DNA of 32,000 nucleotides from Candidatus Lokiarchaeum ossiferum (GTDB taxonomy: Archaea > Asgardarchaeota > Lokiarchaeia > Sigyniarchaeales > Promethearchaeaceae). Shown here piece after piece: positions 2,457 through 20,725 of this stretch (its first letter is position 1; each line of letters starts with the position of its first letter). The notes below the pieces were generated by a model. It was not told the origin of the DNA. It saw nothing but the letters and a program-made list of their open reading frames with translations, and ran no database searches. The DNA is taken from positions 3,960,001-3,992,000 of the forward strand of contig CP104013.1 of the NCBI GenBank assembly GCA_025839675.1, read 5' to 3'. A program made the translations under genes and the position numbers.

Positions 2457-3008
2457 TTATTTTTGCTCATATAATGATAACCAGTGAAAGGCTGCGATGA
2501 TGTATGTATTTGTTATTTTCCCATCTCGAATAAAATTTTGAACATCTTCCATTGGATAAAATTGGCATTCTAAATCTTCGTCAGGATCTAAATTGCGTAT
2601 ACCCGTATTGGTAATGTTTTCCGCGAGGAATGTATAACATTTATTTGATTGAATCGCGGGATTTGCATCTACAACTCCAATTTGTTGAAATTTATTCGAA
2701 ATATACCCTGTTTCTTCCTTTAATTCTCTTCGGGCTCCATCAATAGGTGCTTCATCTGAATCGATGCAACCTCCCGGGATTTCCAACTCTACTTTATCAG
2801 ACCCAAATCGAAATTGGCGGATCAGTAAAATTTCTTTTTTTTTATTTCGCACAATGATATTTGCCCAATCAGGTGTTTGAATAACGAATGCGGAAAATTT
2901 ACCTCTTTTTTCTGGTTTTTCATAGATTTTTTTATACACATTGAAAGGTTTTGAAGAAAATACTTTATTCTCCTTAATAAGATTCCATTTTTTTATCATA
3001 TAGATCAA
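2457..3008 (-). CDS. NUDIX hydrolase (ADP-ribose pyrophosphatase-like)
   Basis: It has a perfect Nudix box Gx5Ex7REUxEExGU, read as GGCIDSDEAPIDGARRELKEETGY. The 183-aa size fits single-domain Nudix enzymes. Confidence 0.85.
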   Translation of the reverse strand: MIYMIKKWNLIKENKVFSSKPFNVYKKIYEKPEKRGKFSAFVIQTPDWANIIVRNKKKEILLIRQFRFGSDKVELEIPGGCIDSDEAPIDGARRELKEETGYISNKFQQIGVVDANPAIQSNKCYTFLAENITNTGIRNLDPDEDLECQFYPMEDVQNFIRDGKITNTYIIAAFHWLSLYEQK

Positions 3009-3140: not shown

Positions 3141-4430
3141 ATGATATTTATTGAAAATTCGGAATACACTTTCACAACTATAGAATCTATAGTCATGATC
3201 ATTTATGGAGGATTTATAATCTTGCTTTTAATGTTTGGATGGGATCTTTTGGGAAGATTCATAAAAGCAGATAAACGTATGCGGGGTGATCCTGCCTATA
3301 TGGTATTCTTCATAATTGCAGTTGCCATGTTGGGTTACGGTATTTATATGTTTCCCGCGTTGGTTGATTATTTCTTTGTAAGTGATTTGACGGGGGCAGA
3401 TAATGCTCTTCTATGGATCGTACCATTTAAATATGCCTTGATTTTATGTATGATCGTTCCTATTGCTTATGTTTGTCTGTTAATTCTTCTTAAAAATCGA
3501 AGAAGGATTGCTAATATTCTGGGGTTAATCGGTGTTTTACCCACAATCTACATTTTTATTATAACTATTATCACCGGCAATAATCCTTCGATCAACGTTG
3601 GATTTACATCACCATTGATACTACCAGTTGTAGCATTCATAGCGATTTTTGCAGTTATCGATTTTATCGGAATCGTTTATATATTGATCGTGGAACTTGC
3701 TCCCCAAAAAGAAGTGAGAAATCGTGTTTTGCTTGGAATTTTGGGCATCGTTATTGCAGGGATTGGTGGTTTTATTGAAGTTTCAAGTCGAGATTCTCTA
3801 ATTGATAATCCGGATAATTGGTGGTATGTATATGGGACATTTATTGAATTATTTGGATTCATTGTCATGCGCCATTTCTTCTTATCTATTCCATCCTATG
3901 ATGAATTTGCTTGGAAGAATGGAATGATTGAAATGCACGTAATCATCGCTGAAACTGGAATTTCTTTACATTATCAGTCATTTGCAGAATTGAAAGCTAA
4001 CGAGTTAAAGGGAGATATCAAAGTAACCGCAACCTTAGCTGAGAATGAAGCACGTCCAAATTCTGATCTTGTTGCAGGTGGTTTAGTGGGAATTAAAGGA
4101 ATGCTTGCTGAAATTTCAGGCGACCGTGGAAAATTAGAGAATATTGAAATTGGTGAAAAATCTCTTGTCTTTAAACAAGGAAAAACAATCCTCTGTTTAT
4201 TACTTGCAGATGAAAATTTGGGTGTTTATCATAGTTTACTTGATGATCTGGTGACAAGAATTGAAGAAGAACATCCTGGATTAGATAATTTCAATGGGGA
4301 TACACGAAAACTTCATATCGCTCCTATAGTGGAAGAAGTTTTTGATTTAACCAATCAAGGAATTTTAAAGAAAACAAAAAAGAAGAAGAAAAAATCTCTT
4401 CCTTCTAACACCTCTGAATCGGAAGTGTAA
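3141..4430 (+). CDS. polytopic membrane protein (about 7-8 TM) with a C-terminal soluble longin/roadblock-like alpha/beta domain and a poly-Lys tail
   Basis: The N-terminal ~250 aa consist of successive hydrophobic helices. The C-terminal ~170 aa show a beta-beta-alpha-beta-beta-beta-alpha pattern (MIEMHVIIAETGISLHYQSF / DLVAGGLVGIKGMLAEI / LENIEIGEKSLVFKQGKTILCLLLADEN / GVYHSLLDDLVTRIEEE). This pattern is typical of small-GTPase-partner folds. The protein ends in KKTKKKKKKS. The fold assignment is an inference. Confidence 0.6.
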   Translation: MIFIENSEYTFTTIESIVMIIYGGFIILLLMFGWDLLGRFIKADKRMRGDPAYMVFFIIAVAMLGYGIYMFPALVDYFFVSDLTGADNALLWIVPFKYALILCMIVPIAYVCLLILLKNRRRIANILGLIGVLPTIYIFIITIITGNNPSINVGFTSPLILPVVAFIAIFAVIDFIGIVYILIVELAPQKEVRNRVLLGILGIVIAGIGGFIEVSSRDSLIDNPDNWWYVYGTFIELFGFIVMRHFFLSIPSYDEFAWKNGMIEMHVIIAETGISLHYQSFAELKANELKGDIKVTATLAENEARPNSDLVAGGLVGIKGMLAEISGDRGKLENIEIGEKSLVFKQGKTILCLLLADENLGVYHSLLDDLVTRIEEEHPGLDNFNGDTRKLHIAPIVEEVFDLTNQGILKKTKKKKKKSLPSNTSESEV

Positions 4431-4478
4431 TATTTTTTTTAATTTCAATTTTAACCTAATTTAGCGGAAGAACAAGAA

Positions 4479-5690
4479 ATGAAAATTCCCGGGTCATTTT
4501 TCGAAGTACAATTGGTATTAAATGGCGAATTAATTGAATTTCAGATTTTAAATCGCGCCGTTGTTGAATATCAAATTTCAGTGATGGATTTTGAAGAAAT
4601 TGAATTTGATCTACCCGAATTTTTAGAGGAAAATCATGTAAGTTTACCAAAGAATCGACTAGAAAATGTATTGCAACAACTTGAAGGTGAGTATTTGGAA
4701 TTGCAACAACAACAAGAAAAAATACGACATCAACAGATGACACAATATCAACAGTCGCAACAAAATATAATTACTTACGAGTCACAAAAGGTTCTTTTAA
4801 TGGGAAGTAGTGGGAAATCATCTATTTATCAGGTAATTTTTGAAAGCAAATCCCCTTATGAAACTTTTTCTTTACCGCCAACTAAGAAAGTTATTAAACA
4901 TAATATAGAATTTGCTGCAATGACATCTGCAAGCCGAAAACAAAATTTAGCCATACTCGAAGCTGGCAGTGAATTTCCCGCACCTGAACATTTTGACCAA
5001 GCATCGATTTTACTCTTTATCATTGATGCTTTTGAAGTTTCCAACTACGAAAACATCCGCTACCAATTACATCAAGCAATCAAATTATTAAAATATCATG
5101 GCAAACGTCCCGCCCATCTACAAGATTCGCAAAGCAACATATTTTGCTTTATTCATAAAATGGATCTGTTTCCGAATTCCGCAGAACAATTTGAATCTCT
5201 TGTAAAATATTTCCGTTATGATCCAGAGGCCGATGCAGTCAATCTGGAAATTAACTTTTTCCCTACCTCCATTTTTGATTCTTCCATTTATAGTGCTTGG
5301 GCTAAAGTAGTTGAAGTAATGATGCCTAAATCTTCAAAACTCAATGCATTATCAAATCAACTCAAAGAAGCTCTCGGTTTATATGCTACTTTGATTATTG
5401 AAAAACGAACTGGATTGCCAATATGTGCTTCCAAGACTTTATTGGATGATTCTGTTTTAGTTGGAAGCACTAATCGGGTGTTAATCGCTATAGAAAAAGT
5501 ATTACCTGAGTATGAACTTGCAGGATTGAAAGATTTTAGAATTAATGCGGCGACTGGTGTCTTGGAAGTTAAACTTTTCCACCAATATTATATGTTGGTG
5601 CTATTGTATCCCCCTCATATTAATCTAAATGATGTGCATTCTCAAAAGAAGCTAACTGAATTTATTGAAACGATGCTAAATAGCATTTAG
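4479..5690 (+). CDS. Rag/Gtr1-family GTPase-like protein (G domain plus C-terminal roadblock-type domain) with a ~100-aa N-terminal extension
   Basis: Three blocks match remembered human RagA signatures. [18 protein letters not shown] matches [31 protein letters not shown] matches IFCLVHKMDLV, where HKMD replaces NKxD, a Rag/Gtr hallmark. [19 protein letters not shown] matches CFRTSIWDETLYKAWSSIV. These are followed by [16 protein letters not shown] (compare EVLLFERATFLVIS) at the start of the C-terminal domain. Confidence 0.8.
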   Translation: [403 protein letters not shown]

Positions 5691-8572: not shown

Positions 8573-9163
8573 TTATTCTAAATTTTTAAAAATAAATTGT
8601 ATTTTTTCATTCCAAAGTCCCTTCTTCTTTAAAAACGCTTGAATAAGTTCCAACTTTTTAAGATCCATTTGAGCTACTTCGAAATCTTCCTTCGTTTTAT
8701 AAAATAAAAGAAATCCGTCGGCGATTTCTTCAAAAGATGCCTTAATTCCAAGAATTTCAATAATTTTGAATGTAAAATTGTAATTTTGCCGGATTATCTC
8801 TTTGTAATTTGTTCGGTATTTGACAATCAAATATAGGTCATTCTCTTCTAGATCTTCTTCATCATAAAAATCTTTGGGGGTAGGTTTTGTGAGTACAGTT
8901 TCGAGGAGATTTGCATAATCTGAAACATTTTCCTGGATCAATTGGTAAAATTTTTCATAAATTTTTTTTTCTCCATGGTATGTGTTTTGGAAATCTCTCT
9001 CGGATTTATATTCAACAAAAATTTTCATATTTTCTCCATTTTCAATGAAATTTACTTGAGAATTGTTACCTCCCTCTGCTTTTTGCTGCAGAAATTTAAG
9101 AATTTCCTTTTTTGGGTCTTGAGAGTGAACAATACTAACTTCAATAAATGGCAGCGATTTCAC
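8573..9163 (-). CDS. hypothetical acidic cytosolic protein
   Basis: 196-aa ORF convergent with the methyltransferase gene. It has no recognisable motifs and no hydrophobic segments. It is called as coding on length and on the absence of a competing ORF. Confidence 0.5.
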   Translation of the reverse strand: MKSLPFIEVSIVHSQDPKKEILKFLQQKAEGGNNSQVNFIENGENMKIFVEYKSERDFQNTYHGEKKIYEKFYQLIQENVSDYANLLETVLTKPTPKDFYDEEDLEENDLYLIVKYRTNYKEIIRQNYNFTFKIIEILGIKASFEEIADGFLLFYKTKEDFEVAQMDLKKLELIQAFLKKKGLWNEKIQFIFKNLE

Positions 9164-9228
9164 AAGTCTTAATAAAAGAAACTTGAATAAGAAGCTTCTC
9201 TCCGGTTTATATTAAAACTTGGGAGAAA

Positions 9229-9516
9229 TTGTTATTAGTGAGGAAAAAGATAGTTACCCTAGCGATGGGTACTGGTACTGAACTAAATCGTAAAAATTTA
9301 ACGATCGATAAGAAGAATATTGTTAATTATATATCACCTGAATTACAAGAAGCATTGGAACTTGCCAAATTGGGGGATTTGCGACATTCTCAAATAATAT
9401 CTGAATTAAAAGAGAAAATTAATGCAAATTTAGTGCAAGGTGAAAATGAAAATGTGAAGTCACGCCTCAAATTGAAATTATTGCGGTATCTTTATAATAT
9501 GGAGGGGAATCTGTAA
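9229..9516 (+). CDS. small hypothetical protein, start uncertain (TTG 9229, GTG 9238 or ATG 9265)
   Basis: 95-aa ORF whose TAA stop (9514-9516) overlaps the ATG of the next gene (9516) in a TAATG arrangement, which suggests translational coupling. A GGGAG lies just upstream (9221-9225). Confidence 0.45.
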   Translation: MLLVRKKIVTLAMGTGTELNRKNLTIDKKNIVNYISPELQEALELAKLGDLRHSQIISELKEKINANLVQGENENVKSRLKLKLLRYLYNMEGNL

Positions 9517-10802
9517 TGGATGTTAAAAAGATTCAGTCTGATGTTGTAGTTGTGGGGGGTGGATTTTCTGGAATGAATATCGCACGAATTCTCTCTCAAA
9601 ATGGTTTATCGTGCAATCTTATCTCAGGTGGGTATGGAGCATCTGAATTTTGGAATGGAACTGTTGATCTTCTTAATTATCCTGGTGATAATATTGAACT
9701 CGAGTTAGCCAAATTTCAAGTTTCTATTAAAGATCATCCCTATGCTAAATTAAGTTTGAAGGACATCCAAAATTCTCTCATTGAATTTAATCGAGACTTT
9801 ACGAAGCTTAGTATTTTCCAAGAAGATGATAAGCTTGTTAATAGGCATGTCATCACACCACTGGGGACGACAAAATTATGTGTTGGTAATTGGAATTCGA
9901 TTTTTTCTACCTATAAAGATTTTACGCTCGATACGAAGTGTTTATTAATAGAGTTCGCGGAATTTCCAAATTCAACTGCTCCATTAGTTTCCCTTGGGCT
10001 AAAAGAAACTTTTCCTGGGCAATTTAATGTATTAACAATCAACCTTGCAACAGTATTTAGTTTGATGAATTCTGAATTTACTGAATATTTAGAAGAAGGA
10101 AAATTATCCGCTCTTAATTTGGCCGAATTTTTTGATGAAAAAGTTCTCCACTTAGCGCCGGTGGCCGAGATTATCAAAAAAGAATTTGAACTGCAATTTC
10201 CAGATCTTAAATTCGAGGAATTAACTCATTTTCTATTTCCTGCTGTAATGGGGTTAGAACATACGCAAACAATTTTGAACAACTTAAGTACATTTCTTAA
10301 TACTGAATGTTGGGAATTTTTAGTATTCACGCCAACCGTCCTTGCAAACCGTCTTATCAATAAAATGGAAAGAAAGCTCGAAATTGCGGGTGCAATCAAC
10401 GATCATTCCAAAATCTTAGTTGATTTGACATCTGAAGAAAGCGTTCATAAGTGGAATTGTCATATAAGAAATTCAGATGGAGAAATAACCATTCTAAATT
10501 CGAAATATGTGATTTTTGCCACGGGTTCGATTTTTCTCCATGGATTTTTTAGAGATCAACTTAAGATGGCCAATCAATTTCTTTCTTTAGGGTTAGATTT
10601 TCCTGAATCCTTGAATCCTCATTTTGAAATTATTTCATCTCATGCCAACTCAAATATTTTTGTCGTGGGTTCTGCAATATTTCATTTTTCTACGAATCTT
10701 GGGGAAGATGATGAAATTCAAGATGGTACTGGTCTTGGTATGGCAATAGCGACGAGTTTTAAGGTTGCTCAAGAAATAATTGCCAGAGAAAAGACGAATT
10801 AA
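9516..10802 (+). CDS. FAD-binding oxidoreductase of the GlpB family (anaerobic glycerol-3-phosphate dehydrogenase subunit B-like)
   Basis: The N-terminal Rossmann motif is VVVVGGGFSGMNIARILSQNGLSCNLISGGYGASEFWNGTVDLL, colinear with remembered E. coli GlpB [44 protein letters not shown]. Further colinear blocks are HPYAKL (HPYSLL), ITPLGT (ITPLGT), VIFATGSIF (AVLASGSFF) and FVVGSAI (FAIGSVL). Its length is similar to GlpB (~420 aa). Confidence 0.7.
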   Translation: MDVKKIQSDVVVVGGGFSGMNIARILSQNGLSCNLISGGYGASEFWNGTVDLLNYPGDNIELELAKFQVSIKDHPYAKLSLKDIQNSLIEFNRDFTKLSIFQEDDKLVNRHVITPLGTTKLCVGNWNSIFSTYKDFTLDTKCLLIEFAEFPNSTAPLVSLGLKETFPGQFNVLTINLATVFSLMNSEFTEYLEEGKLSALNLAEFFDEKVLHLAPVAEIIKKEFELQFPDLKFEELTHFLFPAVMGLEHTQTILNNLSTFLNTECWEFLVFTPTVLANRLINKMERKLEIAGAINDHSKILVDLTSEESVHKWNCHIRNSDGEITILNSKYVIFATGSIFLHGFFRDQLKMANQFLSLGLDFPESLNPHFEIISSHANSNIFVVGSAIFHFSTNLGEDDEIQDGTGLGMAIATSFKVAQEIIAREKTN

Positions 10803-10867
10803 CGGTTTTTTCCTATTTTTGCATTTTTATTCGATTTTTTGATTTATAACAATAAAAAATAGCTACC

Positions 10868-10875
10868 TATAAATA
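10868..10875 (+). promoter_or_regulatory. TATA-box-like element (TATAAATA) positioned to drive + strand transcription into the repeat array
   Basis: TATAAATA sits about 25-30 nt upstream of the first repeat unit (10898). Both flanking genes end here, so neither needs a promoter in this spacer. TATA-like strings are common in AT-rich DNA, so confidence is low. Confidence 0.25.
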
Positions 10876-10897
10876 CTTGAAGTGAATATATATGTTT

Positions 10898-11290
10898 GCC
10901 CAATATCAATGGAAATACGATTTACCATTTCTTGGGTGAATGTACGAAATTGAGTTTGCTTTAATAGGAATAAATGTCGGAAATTTGTTACTAAAGGAAT
11001 AAATGGTGTTGCAGCTCAATAGAATCTGTATTGGTTTGTCCGAAATTGAGTTATAGGAATAAATGTCGGAAATTTGTTACTAAAGGAATAAATGATGTAA
11101 AAACTCAATCGAAATCTGTAATTGTTTGTACGAAATTGAGTCAATTATTAATAATTTGGATGTTGTCGAGACTCAATAGAAATCTGTAATTGTTTGTAGG
11201 TCGTACGAAAATTGGGTCAGTATTAAATATGCGAAAATGAAGTTGGAACCCAATCGAAATCTGTAAGGAATTTAGTTGGTACCCATTTGT
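10898..11290 (+). repeat. array of five related units with inverted-repeat ends (ACTCAAT...ATTGAGT hairpins), plus an embedded 46-nt direct repeat
   Basis: The units are: 10898-10955 (degenerate); 11014-11051 (gCTCAATagaatctgtattggtttgtccgaaATTGAGt); 11103-11141 (ACTCAATcgaaatctgtaattgtttgtacgaaATTGAGT); 11171-11217 (ACTCAAT...ATTGGGT, a G-U-compatible change); and 11248-~11290 (ACCCAAT..., degenerate). The 46-nt direct repeat ataggaataaatgtcggaaatttgttactaaaggaataaatgRtgt occurs at 10964-11009 and 11053-11098 with one mismatch and an 89-nt period. Confidence 0.8.
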
Positions 11291-11309
11291 AATCGCTTTA
11301 TTCGGCGAA

Positions 11310-11357
11310 CCCTATGAGACGTCGTACTCTTTGAGGCGGCGTCGAGGGATTTTTTTT
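11310..11357 (+). terminator. GC-rich stem-loop followed by T8 (candidate + strand terminator / 3' end structure)
   Basis: CCCT(11310-13)...AGGG(11345-48) and GACGTCG(11318-24)/CGGCGTC(11337-43, one G-U pair) form a two-tier stem. TTTTTTTT follows at 11350-11357. On the minus strand the tract reads A8, so the structure is oriented for a + strand transcript. It is by far the most GC-rich patch in this spacer. Confidence 0.45.
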
Positions 11358-11367
11358 ATTCTTTACT

Positions 11368-12363
11368 TCATTCTATAGAAAATTTATAATCTATCCAAGG
11401 AAGATTCTTTTCTAACATTGGTTTCCATGCTGCTACTGCTTGCTGAGACCAATCATCCTCTTCTATGGATAATTCATAAACTAAAGTGCAAAATAAGCTA
11501 ATATGGCGTAATTGAACAAATTTTGAGATTCTCTCTAACCATACATCACCAGTTGGATTAACTTCCAGATAACCTTTGATAAAAGCAGGATAAAATTCCT
11601 GAATCACTTGATTTCGGCTCTTTTCTGCTGTAGAAAAGCGCCAAGCTACATGAAAGAGCACTATCGCCATATCGGAAATGAACCAATCGTATTGGCAATC
11701 ATCAAAATCAATTACTGTTAAATTGCCTCCGTTGATAAATAGGTTTGCATCATGGAGATCAAAGTGTACTAACCCAAAAGTATCCTCATTTTGAGGGAAT
11801 GAACGAATTTCTTCTATCAATTGAATAGCATTTGTTAGAATTATTGGATGATCTTTTAAAATCTCCCTAATATTTCGAAGTACATGTTCTTGATCCCACG
11901 TTTGTCTTCGAACTTCAGGTGGTTGCATTGGATATTGTTTGGTTGCTAAGTGCATTTTTGCAAGGGTTTTTCCCCACAAATATTTGACCTCATCTGTCAA
12001 TAACTCTGGACAATCTCCAATGATGCATCCTTCTAGTTTTTCAAATAAAACTGCGTAGAACGCGGAATTACTTAATTGGTATTTAACAATAAAATCTCCA
12101 TTATTTGCCGTAACGGGAACACATGTTGGGATATTTTGAGTTTGAAGAAAATTAATCCAATTGATTTCAGCAGTAATTTCTTCTTTAGATCTATAGGAAC
12201 TGTGAGAAATTCGGAGAATGAAGGAGTTTTGATCTCGTTCTGCTTCATAAATAAAATTTTCAGTCGTTTCCATTTCAGTTATTTTTTCAAAAGGGATTCT
12301 ATATTCTTGTGCGATTTTTCTAAGAACTTCCACTGTTAAATACTTTTCAATTCCAACTTTCAT
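11368..12363 (-). CDS. phosphotransferase of the APH / choline-kinase-like (protein-kinase-like fold) family
   Basis: The catalytic loop LVHFDLHDANLFI (HxDxxxxN) and the metal-binding VIDFDD motif are separated by the usual ~15 aa. The 331-aa size is typical. Confidence 0.8.
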   Translation of the reverse strand: MKVGIEKYLTVEVLRKIAQEYRIPFEKITEMETTENFIYEAERDQNSFILRISHSSYRSKEEITAEINWINFLQTQNIPTCVPVTANNGDFIVKYQLSNSAFYAVLFEKLEGCIIGDCPELLTDEVKYLWGKTLAKMHLATKQYPMQPPEVRRQTWDQEHVLRNIREILKDHPIILTNAIQLIEEIRSFPQNEDTFGLVHFDLHDANLFINGGNLTVIDFDDCQYDWFISDMAIVLFHVAWRFSTAEKSRNQVIQEFYPAFIKGYLEVNPTGDVWLERISKFVQLRHISLFCTLVYELSIEEDDWSQQAVAAWKPMLEKNLPWIDYKFSIE

Positions 12364-12442
12364 CTGAATATCTCTTATTAGTGTTATATTCTGTCAAAAG
12401 TTTCTTAACTTAAATATTTATTTAAAAGAAGAAGAAAAAAAA

Positions 12443-13936
12443 TTAGAGACGATCTGCTCGCTTTTGAGCATGGAGTTCTTCTAATTTAATGCGCATTTCT
12501 GCAATATGTTCCTTACCTAAGGGGTACCAGAACCATAAAATGGCCCCAATTAGTGCAAATATGGCGGGCATGAGAAATACACCTGTAGCGACACCTTTAA
12601 TGGCATTTCCAATTCCTAAGGTTGGAGTTATGGGTTCTGCTGTAGGATCCTCTGGATTTGAAGGAACTAATCCATAAAGTGCTAAAAATGCCGGAATTAA
12701 TGCAAAAACGACACTTTCCATAACTTTTCCAAACAAACACGCAATTCCTGCGTAAACTGCTTCCCGACGTTCACCAGTTTGAAGTTCATCATAATCTATG
12801 GTGTCAGCCCGCATAACTTGATGGAAAATAAAATCTCCACTGAATCCTAAAAATGTAATCGCCATTCCAATTGAAACTAACCAAATATTGCTTGGAACTT
12901 CCCATATTGTTGTACTTGATGTGAGATCACTAGTCATAATTCCAATATAAGAAATAAATCCACCAATTGCAATTGTCCAGAGTGAGTAACTTAGCGCTGC
13001 TTTGACCGAAATTTTCGAACCAATTTTTAATTGAATTGGGATACCAATAACGGCAAATAGTGCTGGAATTATAAAGTAAAGCATTGCATTACTTCCAGGA
13101 TTCAAGTTAATTGCTCCGAAAATCCAACTAAACATAAAAAACATACCCGTAAGGAGAGAATTTAAAATTCCAACCGACATTCCATCATAGACCATATAAA
13201 GCAAGCCCGATTTGTTTTTAAATACATACTTGACACCTTCCCAAAACGGAGTTTCGTCTTTTGGAATTAATTCTTTTTTCTCCTTAACTACTTTAACAAT
13301 AAAGATCCAAGGAATTAAAGCAACAATTCCGAATATTATGGCCATTAATTGAAATTCCGCAATTTTTGTTGAGGTGGGGTTAGTAAGATACATCATAGGA
13401 AAGGCAAGGCTTGCTCCCATTCCAACGAAGGTAAGGATCGATCCCAATCCATTGATTTCGGTACGTTCTTTTTGATCGAACGTCATTTGGGGTGCTAAAG
13501 ATACATGAGCGAGATAGACTATTGTGAAGAAGGTGTCATAAATCATGTAACTGACCACATACCAGATCAATAAGGCTATCTGATATTTCTCACCTCCAGT
13601 TTGCAAGCGCCATCCTTGCGGAGGGATGAATAGGAGGATAAAACCAATTGTAAAGGGCACTGCGCTGTACTTAATCCATGGGAGATATCGTCCCATTTTT
13701 GTTCGAGTTCGATCTTGAAGGGTCCCAAAGATAGGATCATTTAGTACATTCCAAACCATGTATATCAATTGACCAATTAAAATATAATCTGCTTTTAATC
13801 CCATCCATGCATAATAGAAAGTGGTGATAGCTCCTGTGAATGAAGAGAAAAATCCTGACGGGAGGGTTCCCGTTGCATAGGCGAATTTTTCTTTGAATGA
13901 TAATTTTTTTTGTTCACCTAGTTCTGTCAAAGCCAT
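12443..13936 (-). CDS. MFS-type glycoside-pentoside-hexuronide (GPH):cation symporter family transporter
   Basis: About 12 TM helices. The GPH loop 2-3 signature is LNDPIFGTLQDRTRTKMGRYLPWI (compare D-x-x-G-x-x-x-D-R-T-x-x-x-x-G-R-x-R-P-W). Confidence 0.8.
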   Translation of the reverse strand: MALTELGEQKKLSFKEKFAYATGTLPSGFFSSFTGAITTFYYAWMGLKADYILIGQLIYMVWNVLNDPIFGTLQDRTRTKMGRYLPWIKYSAVPFTIGFILLFIPPQGWRLQTGGEKYQIALLIWYVVSYMIYDTFFTIVYLAHVSLAPQMTFDQKERTEINGLGSILTFVGMGASLAFPMMYLTNPTSTKIAEFQLMAIIFGIVALIPWIFIVKVVKEKKELIPKDETPFWEGVKYVFKNKSGLLYMVYDGMSVGILNSLLTGMFFMFSWIFGAINLNPGSNAMLYFIIPALFAVIGIPIQLKIGSKISVKAALSYSLWTIAIGGFISYIGIMTSDLTSSTTIWEVPSNIWLVSIGMAITFLGFSGDFIFHQVMRADTIDYDELQTGERREAVYAGIACLFGKVMESVVFALIPAFLALYGLVPSNPEDPTAEPITPTLGIGNAIKGVATGVFLMPAIFALIGAILWFWYPLGKEHIAEMRIKLEELHAQKRADRL

Positions 13937-14212
13937 ACCTTACCAAATGTTTAATTTTTATAAAAAGTACAACTTTTTTTTTTTAGAAATTTGAAAAAAG
14001 ATACAATTTTGTTCAATTTTATCTTTGATTTTCTATGGAATTGATTCTAAATACGCAATTTTTTATGAATTTCCCTAAGTAAATGCGATTTTTGTTTATG
14101 GATAGTTCTATCTTCATTTATGGCAAATTTAAATTTAACAATTGGAGACAAAAATTGGTCTAAAGAATTTTTAATACCTCATACATCCATAATATAATTA
14201 CCAGTAATTTAT

Positions 14213-14650
14213 ATGGAAGTAAAAAAAACGATGTCAAAATATTGTGTTAATTGCGGCGGGGAAAATAATCCCGGTGCTAAATTTTGTGCTTTATGTGGGG
14301 CAGAAATGTCTCCCACTGCTCCACCGACCAATCAAGAACCTCAATATCAACAAAATACCTATTCTCAACCAGAATACCAACAAGCCCAACCAGTATACGC
14401 AAACCAAAGTGGGCAAATAAATGATCCAAATCGAAAAGATCGCGTTGCAGCGGCTATTTTTGGAATTATCTTGGGTGGTATCGGAGTACACAAATTTTAT
14501 TTGGGTAATATAGGGATGGGGATTTTATATCTGATTTTCTGCTGGACTGGTATTCCGTCTTTAATCGGTTTTATTGAAGGAATTATTTATCTCACTGAGA
14601 ATGATGAAGAATTCCATCAAAAACATGTGTTACCAATTCTCCAGCGGTAG
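14213..14650 (+). CDS. zinc-ribbon / TM2-domain membrane protein
   Basis: The N-terminus has a double CxxC zinc ribbon (YCVNCGGENNPGAKFCALCG). A Q/P/Y-rich linker follows. The TM2-domain signature is AAIFGIILGGIGVHKFYLGNIGMGILYLIFCWTGIPSLIGFIEGI. Confidence 0.8.
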   Translation: MEVKKTMSKYCVNCGGENNPGAKFCALCGAEMSPTAPPTNQEPQYQQNTYSQPEYQQAQPVYANQSGQINDPNRKDRVAAAIFGIILGGIGVHKFYLGNIGMGILYLIFCWTGIPSLIGFIEGIIYLTENDEEFHQKHVLPILQR

Positions 14651-14700
14651 TTCTTTCTTTTTTCAATCTTTTTCTATTTTTCTCAGAAAATTTAACATCC

Positions 14701-15171
14701 TTAAATCTTCATGCTCATTTCAGTCCCATCAGTAAAACCTAATTTTTTGTAGAGTTTGCGACCCATCTCGGTAGCATGGAGATTCGCAATAGAAATATTT
14801 TGTTTTTTTAACCATTGTATGATTATCTCCATAATTTTTTGAGCAATTCCTTGTTTACGGAATTCTTCTACGACAACAACGCTCATAATGTACCCTTTCT
14901 TCCCGGATAAGTTGTTTGGACTGGGAGGGTGTTTATCAATAACGACTCCACCTGATCCAATTGCTTTTTTTTGTGTATCTTCCGCAATCCACCCAATAAA
15001 TTCTCCTGTGGGAATACTTTGCTGAAAATACTCATTTGCTGCTTCATCGGCTAGATTCAGTAATTCTAAATCAGAATATCCCATTGATTCAAACATAATT
15101 CGTCGAAGTTTTACTATTGAGTTAACATCCGCAATAGAACACTGTCGAATTGAAATATTTCGTTTACTCAT
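14701..15171 (-). CDS. GNAT-family N-acetyltransferase
   Basis: The acetyl-CoA-binding motif A is VVVVEEFRKQGIAQKIMEIIIQWL (R-x-x-G-x-A). The 156-aa size is typical. Confidence 0.8.
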   Translation of the reverse strand: MSKRNISIRQCSIADVNSIVKLRRIMFESMGYSDLELLNLADEAANEYFQQSIPTGEFIGWIAEDTQKKAIGSGGVVIDKHPPSPNNLSGKKGYIMSVVVVEEFRKQGIAQKIMEIIIQWLKKQNISIANLHATEMGRKLYKKLGFTDGTEMSMKI

Positions 15172-15210
15172 GTTTTTTCCCTCATATATAAAATGGTGTG
15201 AAAAAAAGGG

Positions 15211-15717
15211 TTATTTATGAACTACATGTGTATTAGCGAGAATCTGGCAAAAACGAGGATAATTTTCTTTGCCTTTTCTCCATTTCAAAAACAATCCGAT
15301 GATTAAGTCGATTCCCACAAAGAAATAGAATTTACCTGCACTATGAATTAAGGCTTGAACTAAAGTAGGTCTGGTTAATTCTTTGTCTTTAATATGTCGT
15401 TTACCCTTCACTTCAAGCTTCATAATCCATTGACCCAAGGAACGTCCTTTGTTCAACCATGTAAAAATGAAGAAATAGAAAAAGACAACTCCCAGTTGAA
15501 TGAAAAATTGTGTCCGTAATTCTGCAGTTGAAGGTGTTAATCCTTCAAAATGAATACCTACGATAATACCATAAGGAAGTGCTAATATTAGCAAATCTAC
15601 GAAGTATGCGATTAAACGCGGTGGAAAATCAGCATAGTTATATTTTGGTATTTTGCTGGGGGTTTTTTTATGAGCGGATTTTGTCGGATTGCTTTTATTT
15701 TTAGTTGCGTGAGTCAT
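15211..15717 (-). CDS. RDD-family membrane protein
   Basis: A basic N-terminus is followed by YADFPPRLIAYFVDLLILALPYGI and three hydrophobic helices. This layout is consistent with RDD-domain proteins. Confidence 0.55.
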   Translation of the reverse strand: MTHATKNKSNPTKSAHKKTPSKIPKYNYADFPPRLIAYFVDLLILALPYGIIVGIHFEGLTPSTAELRTQFFIQLGVVFFYFFIFTWLNKGRSLGQWIMKLEVKGKRHIKDKELTRPTLVQALIHSAGKFYFFVGIDLIIGLFLKWRKGKENYPRFCQILANTHVVHK

Positions 15718-15893
15718 GTTCCGATCCTCAAAAATTTATTAGCATAAACTGTACTATTGTACACGATGCTTTGAATTGTTATTAATATTTTATCCGTTTT
15801 AAGGATTTTATGATAGCGTCGGTGAGCATAAAAAAGTGTAAAAAAATCTAATCATCTAAACTGCATTGGAAAACAATATTGAAGGAATAGACA

Positions 15894-16913
15894 ATGGCAA
15901 AAATGACATATTATATCGTGAGGGATGTAATTGAGAAACATCCGGTTATTGAAACCTGTGAGGTATCACTTGAAGATTTACGGGATGAATTCAATATTGA
16001 AGCAGTAAAAAAGCAATGCAAATTTTGTTTTTTGGATGTATTTCTTGAAGAGAGTCCTTTTGATCTTGACCACAATCAGGAAATCTTAGATTTAACCGTT
16101 TTACTTGATATTTCATTAGATACTTTTGAGGAGATTATCCAAGATAGTAGGCCACGTTTGGATGATTATCAAGAATATTTATTTATTTTATTTAAAAGCA
16201 TTGGGAAACATCCAACTGAAATTGATGGGAAATCAGAACATCAATGCGGGTTGATTATTGATGAAAATATTTTAATGTCTATCCATGTTGGGATTCCATT
16301 ACCTTTAGACAAACTCTTCCGATTATTTAACCGAAATCCACAAATGCTCATTCGGGGTGGAATCACATACCTCTCCACAACATACTTTGATGCGTTAATA
16401 GATCCCACATATCACGTGCTTGATGGGTGGAGGAAGCTTTCTGATGATATTGAATGGAGTATACTGAGTCAAAAGCGGGTAGATCAACAAACTACTCTTT
16501 CTCGTTTGATTGGAATTCGGGAATCAATTTTTGATACTGTGAAGATTCTTCAAGCGGATCGGGAAGTTGTGAATCGTATGAAAAGTCCGAATATGCCTAT
16601 TTTTAAGAAAGAATTTATTCCACCTGAGTTGGATGATCATATCCGCCATTTACTTGATGAACAAGATATTCTCCGCGCTACTATTTCTGATTTGATGAAT
16701 TTATTCTTCAATGCGGAATCGAGTAAAACAAATCGCGTTCTTTCCCGCTACACCTTTGTTACCTCCATACTATTACTTCCCAGTTTGATAGCTGGAATAT
16801 TTGGAATGAATAATATTCATTTTCCTCAAATATCTTTTTGGTGGGTGTTAGTTATCATGGTTTCCTGTATGGGAGGATTATGGTTTTTGTTTAAAAAAAA
16901 ACAACTTATTTAG
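15894..16913 (+). CDS. corA: CorA-family divalent cation (Mg2+/Co2+) channel
   Basis: A large soluble N-terminal domain is followed by two C-terminal TM helices bracketing the GMN signature (IAGIFGMNNIHFP). Confidence 0.85.
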   Translation: MAKMTYYIVRDVIEKHPVIETCEVSLEDLRDEFNIEAVKKQCKFCFLDVFLEESPFDLDHNQEILDLTVLLDISLDTFEEIIQDSRPRLDDYQEYLFILFKSIGKHPTEIDGKSEHQCGLIIDENILMSIHVGIPLPLDKLFRLFNRNPQMLIRGGITYLSTTYFDALIDPTYHVLDGWRKLSDDIEWSILSQKRVDQQTTLSRLIGIRESIFDTVKILQADREVVNRMKSPNMPIFKKEFIPPELDDHIRHLLDEQDILRATISDLMNLFFNAESSKTNRVLSRYTFVTSILLLPSLIAGIFGMNNIHFPQISFWWVLVIMVSCMGGLWFLFKKKQLI

Positions 16914-19633: not shown

Positions 19634-20725
19634 ATGAGTGAAGTTGAAAGATCCATTACCATCGGTCTCTTGGGAGCGAATCATGATATTACCAAACTGG
19701 TGGGTGAAGCATTCGGCAGTCCAGGCACAAGATCAGACTTGCAATTTTATAATCGGCTAGATTCGGGGATGAATATGATTTTTACTGCGGTTGCCCCGAT
19801 TGCATATCCTGAAAAAATAAAATCTTTAGTTCAAACCTGTGCAGAAACGAGTGTTCATATCATGATCATAGATTCCGAAACTGGAATTAATTCCGAAATT
19901 GGTGAAATTATGGTGATTATGGATTTGTATGCACAACATTTTAATTCCAAATTTATTGCAGTGATTGGAGGTATAACACCTACAAATGAGTGGCGTGTAG
20001 AAGAAATTCAGAATCAATTGCCAAAAGTGGTTGCAAATACTTCATTGAAAGCCATGGAATTAGTCGTTCTTAAAGATCGGGAAAACTATCAGCAATTAAA
20101 GCAGAAGGTATCCGATTTGTTTACATCAACTCCAAAACCCGATCCAAAAGATGCTCCATATAGTAAGGTCCTAATTGATCATGTGTTTCCGGTTCAAGGA
20201 ATTGGTACTGTGGCGTTAGGCTTAGTGACTAAAGGACAAGTAAAAGCGGGACAAATGTATGATATTGTTCCGGTCCAGAATAAAGTCATTTTACGATCGA
20301 TTCAAAAGCAAGATCGCGATTTTAAAACTGCTGAAGAAGGAGATCGGGTGGGCCTTGCTCTTAAAGGCATTAAAGGAGATAAAATCGATCGGAATGCGAT
20401 CTTTTGCACTTTAGGGGCCATGACTACTTCCTCCAAATTTCAAGCGAAAGTTCATGTTTCTCCTTATTATCGTCCTCAAAGCGAATCGGGTATGATATCT
20501 CCAAAAGATGCCAAAGCTTACCATGCAATTGCAGATCTTGGAATCAGTCCCGTAAAATTATTAGAAGGGGAAGATATTGCGCCGGGAAAAACGGGTGTGA
20601 TAACTTTAGAACTCGAAAAAGAATTACCCCATGATAGGAATGGAATGCGTGGGATTATTGCTGATTTTGGTCCTTTTGATAAAAAACTCCGCATTGTCGC
20701 ATATTTTGAGCAGATTATTGAATAA
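19634..20725 (+). CDS. EF-Tu/SelB-like protein with a degenerate (non-GTPase) G-like domain plus beta-barrel domain II
   Basis: The domain II signature is LIDHVFPVQGIGTVALGLVTKGQVKAGQMYDIVPVQNKVILRSIQKQDRDFKTAEEGDRVGLALKGI. The N-terminal region is colinear with a G domain, but its motifs are replaced. GHVDHGKT becomes GANHDITK, DxPGH becomes AVAPIAY, and there is no NKxD. Confidence 0.75.
   Translation: MSEVERSITIGLLGANHDITKLVGEAFGSPGTRSDLQFYNRLDSGMNMIFTAVAPIAYPEKIKSLVQTCAETSVHIMIIDSETGINSEIGEIMVIMDLYAQHFNSKFIAVIGGITPTNEWRVEEIQNQLPKVVANTSLKAMELVVLKDRENYQQLKQKVSDLFTSTPKPDPKDAPYSKVLIDHVFPVQGIGTVALGLVTKGQVKAGQMYDIVPVQNKVILRSIQKQDRDFKTAEEGDRVGLALKGIKGDKIDRNAIFCTLGAMTTSSKFQAKVHVSPYYRPQSESGMISPKDAKAYHAIADLGISPVKLLEGEDIAPGKTGVITLELEKELPHDRNGMRGIIADFGPFDKKLRIVAYFEQIIE

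Follow-up and report, generated by a model that had tools for sequence, protein, structure and literature searches.

A degenerate Rag-like GTPase gene beside a gene for a putative membrane-anchored longin protein in Candidatus Lokiarchaeum ossiferum: probably a lineage-specific juxtaposition

Does the close spacing of a Rag-like GTPase gene and a membrane protein gene in Candidatus Lokiarchaeum ossiferum denote a dedicated signaling system? The question is raised by a 32,000-nucleotide (nt) stretch of contig CP104013.1 (positions 3,960,001 to 3,992,000; hereafter the window), in which an open reading frame (ORF) for a Rag-like protein follows, on the same strand and after a short spacer, an ORF for a polytopic membrane protein, here called the 7TM-longin protein. 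A preliminary description of this DNA located both ORFs and the spacer correctly (Table 1) and proposed that they encode a membrane-tethered Rag switch. Asgard archaea possess many Rag-, Rab-, and Arf-like GTPases as well as longin and roadblock proteins, and the partnerships and membrane routes of these proteins are almost unexplored. Asgard Rag-like GTPases have been catalogued in MKD1 (Tran et al. 2024, PMC10933270), and the small GTPases of MKD1 are without lipid-anchor cysteines (PMC10933270). The evidence presented here points, on balance, to a different explanation: two separately evolved eukaryote-like signaling genes were probably juxtaposed in the L. ossiferum lineage and do not form a dedicated two-gene system.

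Gene order was compared across 17 loci, the window included, each of which carries an ortholog or a clear relative of the Rag-like gene and was screened by tblastn. The 7TM-longin gene was found directly upstream of the Rag-like gene in three of these loci (the window, L094, and L001), where the two genes lie on the same strand and 48 to 101 nt apart. The GTPases of L094 and L001 are 89% and 60% identical to the window protein, respectively. As the three proteins form one clade in a rough neighbor-joining (NJ) tree without support values, the adjacency represents one evolutionary event. The P. syntrophicum orthologs are encoded at 0.48 Mb and 2.53 Mb, about 2 Mb apart, and the genes around four further 7TM-longin orthologs show no relation from one locus to the next. 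The 7TM-longin family predates its adjacency to the Rag-like gene and is better conserved. The pair is not conserved in related genomes, which by the reasoning of the preliminary description itself largely argues against a dedicated membrane-tethered Rag switch. That reading draws on a gene order peculiar to one lineage and should not be carried forward as if the system were conserved.

Signals in the spacer favor separate transcription units for the 7TM-longin and Rag-like genes, if weakly in a genome of 33% GC. The T8 tract reported previously is indeed present directly after the TAA stop codon of the 7TM-longin gene, and each of the three loci with this arrangement has a T-run at that point. 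In the window, the TATA-like element CAATTTTAACC is positioned at -32 to -24 relative to the start codon of the Rag-like gene; orthologs that cannot do without a promoter of their own carry a conserved AAAAAATTTAACA at roughly this distance. Co-transcription is doubtful because of these T-runs and the TATA-like box at an ortholog-like distance.

A gene for a zinc-ribbon Rab/Ras-like GTPase lies head-to-head (divergent) with the Rag-like gene in 14 loci. Its product comprises 195 to 204 amino acids (aa) and ends in a C-terminal zinc ribbon, CPHCGExIxKxLxFCxxCGxKL. The arrangement is kept even beside Rag-like relatives of 29 to 31% identity (L019 and L096). This GTPase is absent from the window (nt 1 to 32,000), L001, and L094, exactly the loci in which the 7TM-longin gene occupies that slot. 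The zinc-ribbon GTPase family is large, with 641 matches at an E value of ≤1e-20, and extends to Hermod- and Heimdallarchaeota; its best 120 homologs include Harpocratesius and others and no L. ossiferum protein. Conserved neighborhoods are rare for genes of Asgard eukaryotic signature proteins (bioRxiv 10.1101/2020.10.19.343400), and it is against this background that the deeply conserved head-to-head pairing of Rag-like and zinc-ribbon GTPase genes stands out. The zinc-ribbon GTPase gene would be the ancestral genomic partner of the Rag-like gene, and a lineage-specific rearrangement would have made the Rag-like and 7TM-longin genes neighbors, with the latter taking the slot held by the zinc-ribbon GTPase gene elsewhere.

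The roadblock domain of the Rag-like protein may form a platform for the zinc-ribbon GTPase, comparable to MglB or Ragulator. The paired genes resemble the MglA-MglB system, where a small GTPase gene is likewise paired with the gene of a roadblock protein. However, the roadblock is here part of a Rag-type protein with a degenerate G domain of its own, and the two genes are divergent, not co-oriented. Unlike MglB, the Rag-like protein has no known GTPase-activating protein (GAP) activity.

The product of the downstream ORF is a Rag/Gtr1-family protein, far above chance, as previously proposed. Pfam Gtr1_RagA (PF04670) matched aa 104 to 319 with an E value of 3.5e-28 and 99 bits (cutoff, 22), and the top PDB sequence matches were Gtr1, RagC, and RagA. 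A family profile scored RagA/Gtr1 well above RagC/Gtr2, with Arf proteins reaching only ~1e-12; the Gtr1 scores of this search against the PDB are inflated because the profile contained three yeast Gtr1 sequences. An AlphaFold2 (AF2) model based on an alignment of 49 archaeal and eukaryotic sequences reached a predicted local distance difference test (pLDDT) value of 82 and assigned the G domain to aa 103 to 281. Foldseek superposed this model over ~315 columns (310 to 320) onto full-length Gtr1/RagA, including the C-terminal domain (E value of 3e-20; TM score of 0.80). The first 45 Foldseek matches were all Rag/Gtr chains, and MglB superposed on the C-terminal domain alone. The database version of the L. 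ossiferum protein differs from that of the window at two residues (E71V and A357T), while the neighboring membrane protein is 100% identical to its database counterpart (NEF87_003350; P0121), which suggests a strain- or version-level difference.

With RagA/B-Gtr1, the Rag-like protein thus shares the G domain followed by a C-terminal roadblock domain, the HKxD form of G4, and the TSIxD..W block, and it is closer to RagA/Gtr1 than to RagC/Gtr2. By analogy to Rags, it most likely dimerizes through the C-terminal roadblock domain. In contrast to RagA/B-Gtr1, there is no evidence here for a Gtr2/RagC-type partner, Ragulator/EGO, or TORC1, and no second Rag-like gene was detected in the 32,000-nt window. 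The Rag-like family is single-copy and restricted to Lokiarchaeia. Distant full-length relatives of 25 to 30% identity, N-terminal extension included, were also observed on metagenome contigs L019 to L029.

Also in contrast to RagA/B-Gtr1, the Rag-like protein carries a structured N-terminal extension of ~100 aa. This extension is kept in all ~39 archaeal family members, including those with canonical motifs. The Q-rich stretch described previously is present at aa 73 to 95 within the long helix, but the Q-richness is specific to L. ossiferum; the orthologs have a long helix of variable sequence. The extension yielded no PDB sequence match and is unrelated to the longin profile introduced below. 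For these reasons, a longin-GTPase-roadblock architecture was rejected for this protein.

The preliminary description saw an almost residue-for-residue match to RagA/Gtr1. This is accurate for G4 and G5, whereas the P-loop is two residues shorter and DxxGQ, with the catalytic Gln and ~10 residues of switch II, is missing. The 2-residue P-loop deletion is common to 28 of the 29 close orthologs, P. syntrophicum DSAG12_00977 among them, and the GQ and the switch II segment are missing in all 29. Canonical GLxxAGKTS and WDLGGQ...F..RY motifs are retained in eight deeper-branching relatives (P0030-35, P0038, and P0039). In the NJ tree, which is rough and lacks support values, the degenerate group forms one derived clade with the canonical relatives basal to it. 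Several positions are invariant in all 49 aligned sequences (Lys113, Ser114/115, the switch-I Thr135, H226/K227/D229 of the HKMD motif, and T263), and S264, I265, D267, and W274 of the G5 block are nearly so.

Since this clade keeps GKS, the switch-I Thr, HKMD, and TSI, we infer that its proteins probably still bind guanine nucleotide. Judged by the motifs, canonical hydrolysis and switch II signaling have probably been lost. The Rag-like protein would then be a scaffold or a pseudo-switch that is locked or very slow, binding nucleotide with no canonical cycling. Pseudo-GTPases include CENP-M, the pseudoGTPase domain of AAGAB, and non-hydrolyzing GTPases of the Rnd/RhoH type. The Rag-like clade is similar to these in keeping the GTPase fold with catalytic motifs lost; in contrast to those that do not bind nucleotide, its retained residues suggest that binding has been kept. 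The degenerate clade would therefore offer a natural pseudo-switch with canonical sister proteins for comparison. Rag-type G domains fused to a roadblock domain are also seen in the Lokiarchaeial LokiRagO (8yl2) and LokiRagM (8zla/9m28), which are paralogs of the Rag-like protein (profile E values of ~1e-25 and ~1e-23, respectively), bind GTP/GDP, and are without the N-terminal extension. In the literature searched, no description was found of the degenerate-motif Rag clade and its gene neighborhood, of LokiRagO/LokiRagM, or of an Asgard pseudoGTPase.

The upstream gene encodes a polytopic membrane protein with a soluble domain of ~150 aa, in agreement with the preliminary description. Kyte-Doolittle segments combined with the positive-inside rule assigned the positive loops DKRMRG, KNRRR, and KEVRNR to the inside, yielding seven transmembrane helices with the N terminus out and the C terminus in. 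The soluble domain is predicted to be cytosolic because of this topology. Conservation is highest in this domain, which has ~40 invariant residues. None of 30 members matched a Pfam family in the 7-TM region, and the UniRef label "Histidine kinase N-terminal 7TM" was likewise not reproduced by Pfam in these members. Among the orthologs, a lysine-rich tail is shared by the window protein and P0122 (76% identical) alone; it might form a membrane- or nucleic acid-binding patch particular to this lineage. The 7TM-longin family, represented in P. syntrophicum by DSAG12_02834, is single-copy, comprises ~31 clusters, and is confined to Lokiarchaeia/Promethearchaeota.

The AF2 model of the soluble domain reached a pLDDT of 69 overall and 84 to 93 in its core, with the topology a-b-b-(b)-a-b-b-b-a-a. 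All of the best 50 PDB matches obtained with Foldseek belong to the longin/roadblock/profilin superfold, although the best E value was only 1.9e-3. The list is headed by AP sigma subunits and also contains AP mu longins, Sec22b (TM score of 0.69), VAMP7, TRAPP Bet5/Trs23, Fuzzy, and Mon1-Ccz1, while LAMTOR2/3 and MKD1 Roadblock2 stand lower. A domain profile built from 35 diverse relatives gave one notable PDB match, the TRAPP longin subunit 7b6d_C (E value of 0.01). The window protein itself had no Pfam match; scanned singly, the 35 relatives gave 10 sub-threshold matches to Sybindin (best E value of 6e-4), Intu_longin_1, and Fuz_longin_1, and no other Pfam family recurred among them. Robl_LC7 (PF03259) was matched neither by the window protein nor by the 35 relatives. 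On the basis of the model and these matches, the domain is accepted as longin-type, closer to longin than to Roadblock/LC7. The longin/roadblock-like fold suspected earlier is thus supported, nearer its longin side. Of the profiles brought up in the preliminary description, Gtr1_RagA was matched, whereas Roadblock/LC7 was not and longin families were reached only below threshold, by relatives of the membrane protein. A longin SNARE was rejected, as the domain order is reversed and the SNARE motif absent.

The longin module is not limited to the 7-TM context. An exhaustive profile search recovered ~170 more distant relatives in addition to the ~31 core clusters. With a hidden Markov model of the domain only, the module was detected at the C terminus of proteins with 5 to 8 transmembrane segments and of ~20 proteins with 9 to 12 such segments, several of which matched MFS_1, as well as in ~15 standalone proteins of 100 to 160 aa. 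One of the MFS-type fusions is encoded in the same Lokiarchaeial metagenome-assembled genome as locus L008. No GTPase gene flanks the MFS-longin fusions at the two loci examined. Longin and Rag-like proteins abound in Asgard archaea and have undergone heavy domain shuffling, with shuffled longin fusions being common (Liu et al., bioRxiv 10.1101/2020.10.19.343400). No description of a longin domain fused C-terminally to a 7-TM or MFS membrane domain was found in the literature searched.

The occurrence of the module on 7-TM and MFS-type proteins hints at a whole family of longin platforms anchored in the membrane. At both the sequence and the structure level, the best clues for the soluble domain point to longins of guanine nucleotide exchange factor (GEF) and GAP platforms, such as TRAPP Bet5/Trs23-sybindin, Mon1-Ccz1, Fuzzy-Inturned, and FLCN/NPRL2. 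However, these known platforms are soluble and usually heterodimeric, whereas the longin domain of the window protein is fused to a membrane domain. The 7TM-longin protein is most likely a membrane-anchored longin platform that would recruit or regulate a small GTPase according to the state of its membrane domain. Polytopic proteins of the 7-TM and MFS types with a cytosolic longin domain are therefore direct candidates for membrane-anchored GTPase platforms.

Whether the adjacent Rag-like protein is the GTPase served by the 7TM-longin protein is a separate matter. As tether or regulator of its neighbor, the 7TM-longin protein would form a minimal archaeal Ragulator/SLC38A9-Rag unit, with the longin domain pairing with the C-terminal roadblock domain or contacting the G domain. 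This was the logic of the preliminary description, drawn from membrane-bound roadblock/longin platforms (Ragulator/EGO) and a polytopic transporter-like protein (SLC38A9) that position or regulate a Rag dimer. Both domain assignments on which it relied are right, the longin domain is predicted to be cytosolic, the genes are closely spaced on one strand at three loci, and both families are restricted to Lokiarchaeia. Furthermore, the slot of the ancestral GTPase partner has passed to the 7TM-longin gene, and protein tethers are plausible for small GTPases without lipid anchors, as in MKD1 (PMC10933270). However, in contrast to Ragulator/SLC38A9, the longin domain is here joined covalently to a 7-TM (or MFS) protein, a lipidated LAMTOR1/Ego1 is lacking, and there is no evidence that the Rag-like protein is the client, the gene linkage being lineage-specific. 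The adjacency, seen in three of 17 loci, goes back to one event and is younger and less conserved than the 7TM-longin family; the P. syntrophicum orthologs are 2 Mb apart; T-runs and the TATA-like box point to separate transcription units; and no GTPase gene lies beside the other membrane-longin fusions examined. We consider this explanation unlikely; it keeps some weight because the slot replacement is suggestive and because the two proteins may interact physically regardless of gene order. Its broader form appears a shade less probable still. In this form, longin domains on 7-TM/MFS proteins would be archaeal "transceptor"-like GTPase platforms that anticipate the SLC38A9/Ragulator-Rag system and explain how Asgard GTPases free of lipid anchors gain access to membranes, and the one in the L. 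ossiferum lineage would act on the Rag-like protein in place of the zinc-ribbon partner. A physical interaction of the two proteins is also one of several points that weigh against the juxtaposition of two independent genes. The same-strand spacing of 48 to 55 nt at two loci would permit read-through, and as the 7TM-longin gene occupies the exact slot of the zinc-ribbon GTPase gene, the exchange could be a functional substitution and not chance. Both families are single-copy in the same archaeal class, which fits a shared pathway. Likewise, the longin assignment draws on a model of medium confidence (pLDDT of 69) and sub-threshold matches (1.9e-3, 0.01, and 6e-4), the loss of GTPase cycling is read from motifs only, and the synteny with the methyltransferase and zinc-ribbon GTPase genes could partly be an inherited backbone instead of a functional linkage.

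Two further explanations concern one of the two proteins each. The Rag-like protein could work with the Type III Mod-like DNA methyltransferase encoded downstream, as a nucleotide-dependent regulator or partner of methylation or of a defense-like function, in which case the membrane protein would be irrelevant. The methyltransferase appears intact, with DPPY and FxGxG motifs visible in its translation, and its gene is found downstream of the Rag-like gene wherever a close-ortholog locus offers sufficient sequence (L001-L008, L016, L094, and L097), adjacent or overlapping in most of them (27 nt apart in the window; 20-nt overlap in L008). However, the two genes are split by opposite-strand genes in L002 and L004 and by a gap of ~700 nt in L016, and the methyltransferase gene is not found beside the deeper relatives in L095, L096, and L019, which keep the zinc-ribbon GTPase gene. 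The pair also belongs to a longer backbone, Rag-MTase-CorA-EFTuD2. The window contains no Res or other defense gene, with no more than a DEAD-box helicase 16 kb away, and the methyltransferase looks like an orphan because a Res gene is missing. Rag-type proteins are not known to act on DNA methyltransferases, and we regard such a partnership as very unlikely. Less improbable, yet still doubtful, is the possibility that the membrane protein has, as its soluble domain, a ligand-binding or oligomerization module of the broad profilin/longin-like a/b sandwich class. The protein would then be a sensor or transporter regulator with no tie to small GTPases. The weak fold-search statistics with profilins among the matches, the lack of a Pfam family above threshold, the absence of consistently neighboring GTPase genes, and the fusion of the module to transporters would all agree with this. 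The recurring sequence hints, however, all lead to longins of GEF platforms (Sybindin/TRAPP, Fuz/Mon1, and Intu/Ccz1), and both small GTPases and longin/roadblock proteins occur in great numbers in Lokiarchaeia. A juxtaposition of two separately evolved genes thus remains the explanation that we consider probable.

Table 1. Coordinates of features of the Rag-like and 7TM-longin genes and their neighborhood (window positions unless a locus is named)
Feature	Position	Strand	Basis
NUDIX hydrolase gene, divergent from 7TM-longin gene	2457..3008	-	Pfam NUDIX 1e-16
7TM-longin membrane protein gene, 429 aa	3141..4430	+	ORF; 100% match to P0121
Polytopic membrane region, ~7 transmembrane helices, predicted N-out/C-in	3168..3890	+	Kyte-Doolittle, positive-inside
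Cytosolic longin-type domain (predicted), aa ~255-400	3903..4340	+	AF2, Foldseek, profiles
Lineage-specific lysine-rich tail KKTKKKKKK	4368..4394	+	Alignment; disordered in AF2 model
48-nt spacer with T8 tract (4433-4440, terminator-like) and TATA-like CAATTTTAACC (4446-4456)	4431..4478	+	Sequence
Rag/Gtr1-family gene, degenerate G1/G3, 403 aa	4479..5690	+	Pfam, PDB matches, AF2, Foldseek
N-terminal extension: b-b-b-a module (aa 8-51) and long helix (aa 58-95, Q-rich here)	4479..4763	+	AF2, pLDDT 84-91
Shortened P-loop GSSGKSS (G-xx-GKS vs G-xxxx-GKS)	4803..4823	+	Alignment with Gtr1 and canonical Lokiarchaeial relatives
G3/switch II remnant LEAGSE (vs WDxGGQ), then ~10-residue deletion	4956..4973	+	Alignment
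G4 motif HKMD, aa 226-229, Rag-specific variant of NKxD	5154..5165	+	Alignment
G5 block with TSIFD (aa 263-267), aa 262-274	5262..5300	+	Alignment
C-terminal roadblock (dimerization) domain, a-b-b-a-b-b-b-a, aa 286-402	5334..5684	+	AF2, Foldseek
Type III Mod-like DNA methyltransferase gene, 949 aa	5718..8567	+	Pfam N6_N4_Mtase 2.6e-28; PADLOC MTase_III 4.6e-84
Zinc-ribbon GTPase gene	L007 9031-9630, L097 5222-5809, L095 5229-5810, L096 5123-5737, L019 5028-5588, others	-	Head-to-head
Longin module on MFS-type/standalone proteins (P0205, P0232, P0244, P0246, P0302, and others)	L098 6001-7899, L099 6001-7668		

The backbone downstream of the Rag-like gene is broken in the window lineage by an insertion of ~7 kb. 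In Promethearchaeum-type loci (L097/L007), genes for CorA and an EF-Tu-domain-2 protein, located in the window at 15894-16913 and 19634-20725, respectively, directly follow the methyltransferase gene. In the window, both are displaced by the region 8573-15893, which encodes a FAD-binding protein, an APH kinase, an MFS_2 transporter, a TM2/zinc-ribbon protein, a GNAT protein, and an RDD protein. In locus L095, a standalone Robl_LC7 gene (10223-10600, + strand) was observed ~3 kb downstream of the canonical-motif Rag-like ortholog P0034. Neither the Rag-like nor the 7TM-longin protein had a match in NCBIfam or PADLOC, and an Rfam scan of the window found no RNA family.

Small GTPase genes also occur near the 7TM-longin orthologs in L011 and L013. 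These were rejected as linkage because their families and distances differ and because Lokiarchaeia encode ~70 to 100 small GTPase genes (PMC10933270). An ORF for a cysteine-rich protein of 84 aa with a CxxCGxCC motif lies on the same strand directly upstream of the 7TM-longin ortholog in L009 (7591-7845) and L013 (7576-7830), the two products being 67% identical; as the window and the remaining loci lack it, it was rejected as a general partner. Upstream of the 7TM-longin gene, the arrangement with the NUDIX hydrolase gene on the minus strand and the 7TM-longin gene on the plus strand recurs in L001, L094, and L011. Beyond the NUDIX hydrolase gene, the window contains two tandem alpha/beta-hydrolase-like paralogs (463-1323 and 1565-2416, + strand; 286 and 283 aa) with weak Hydrolase_4/Abhydrolase matches, and this tandem arrangement is also present in L094.

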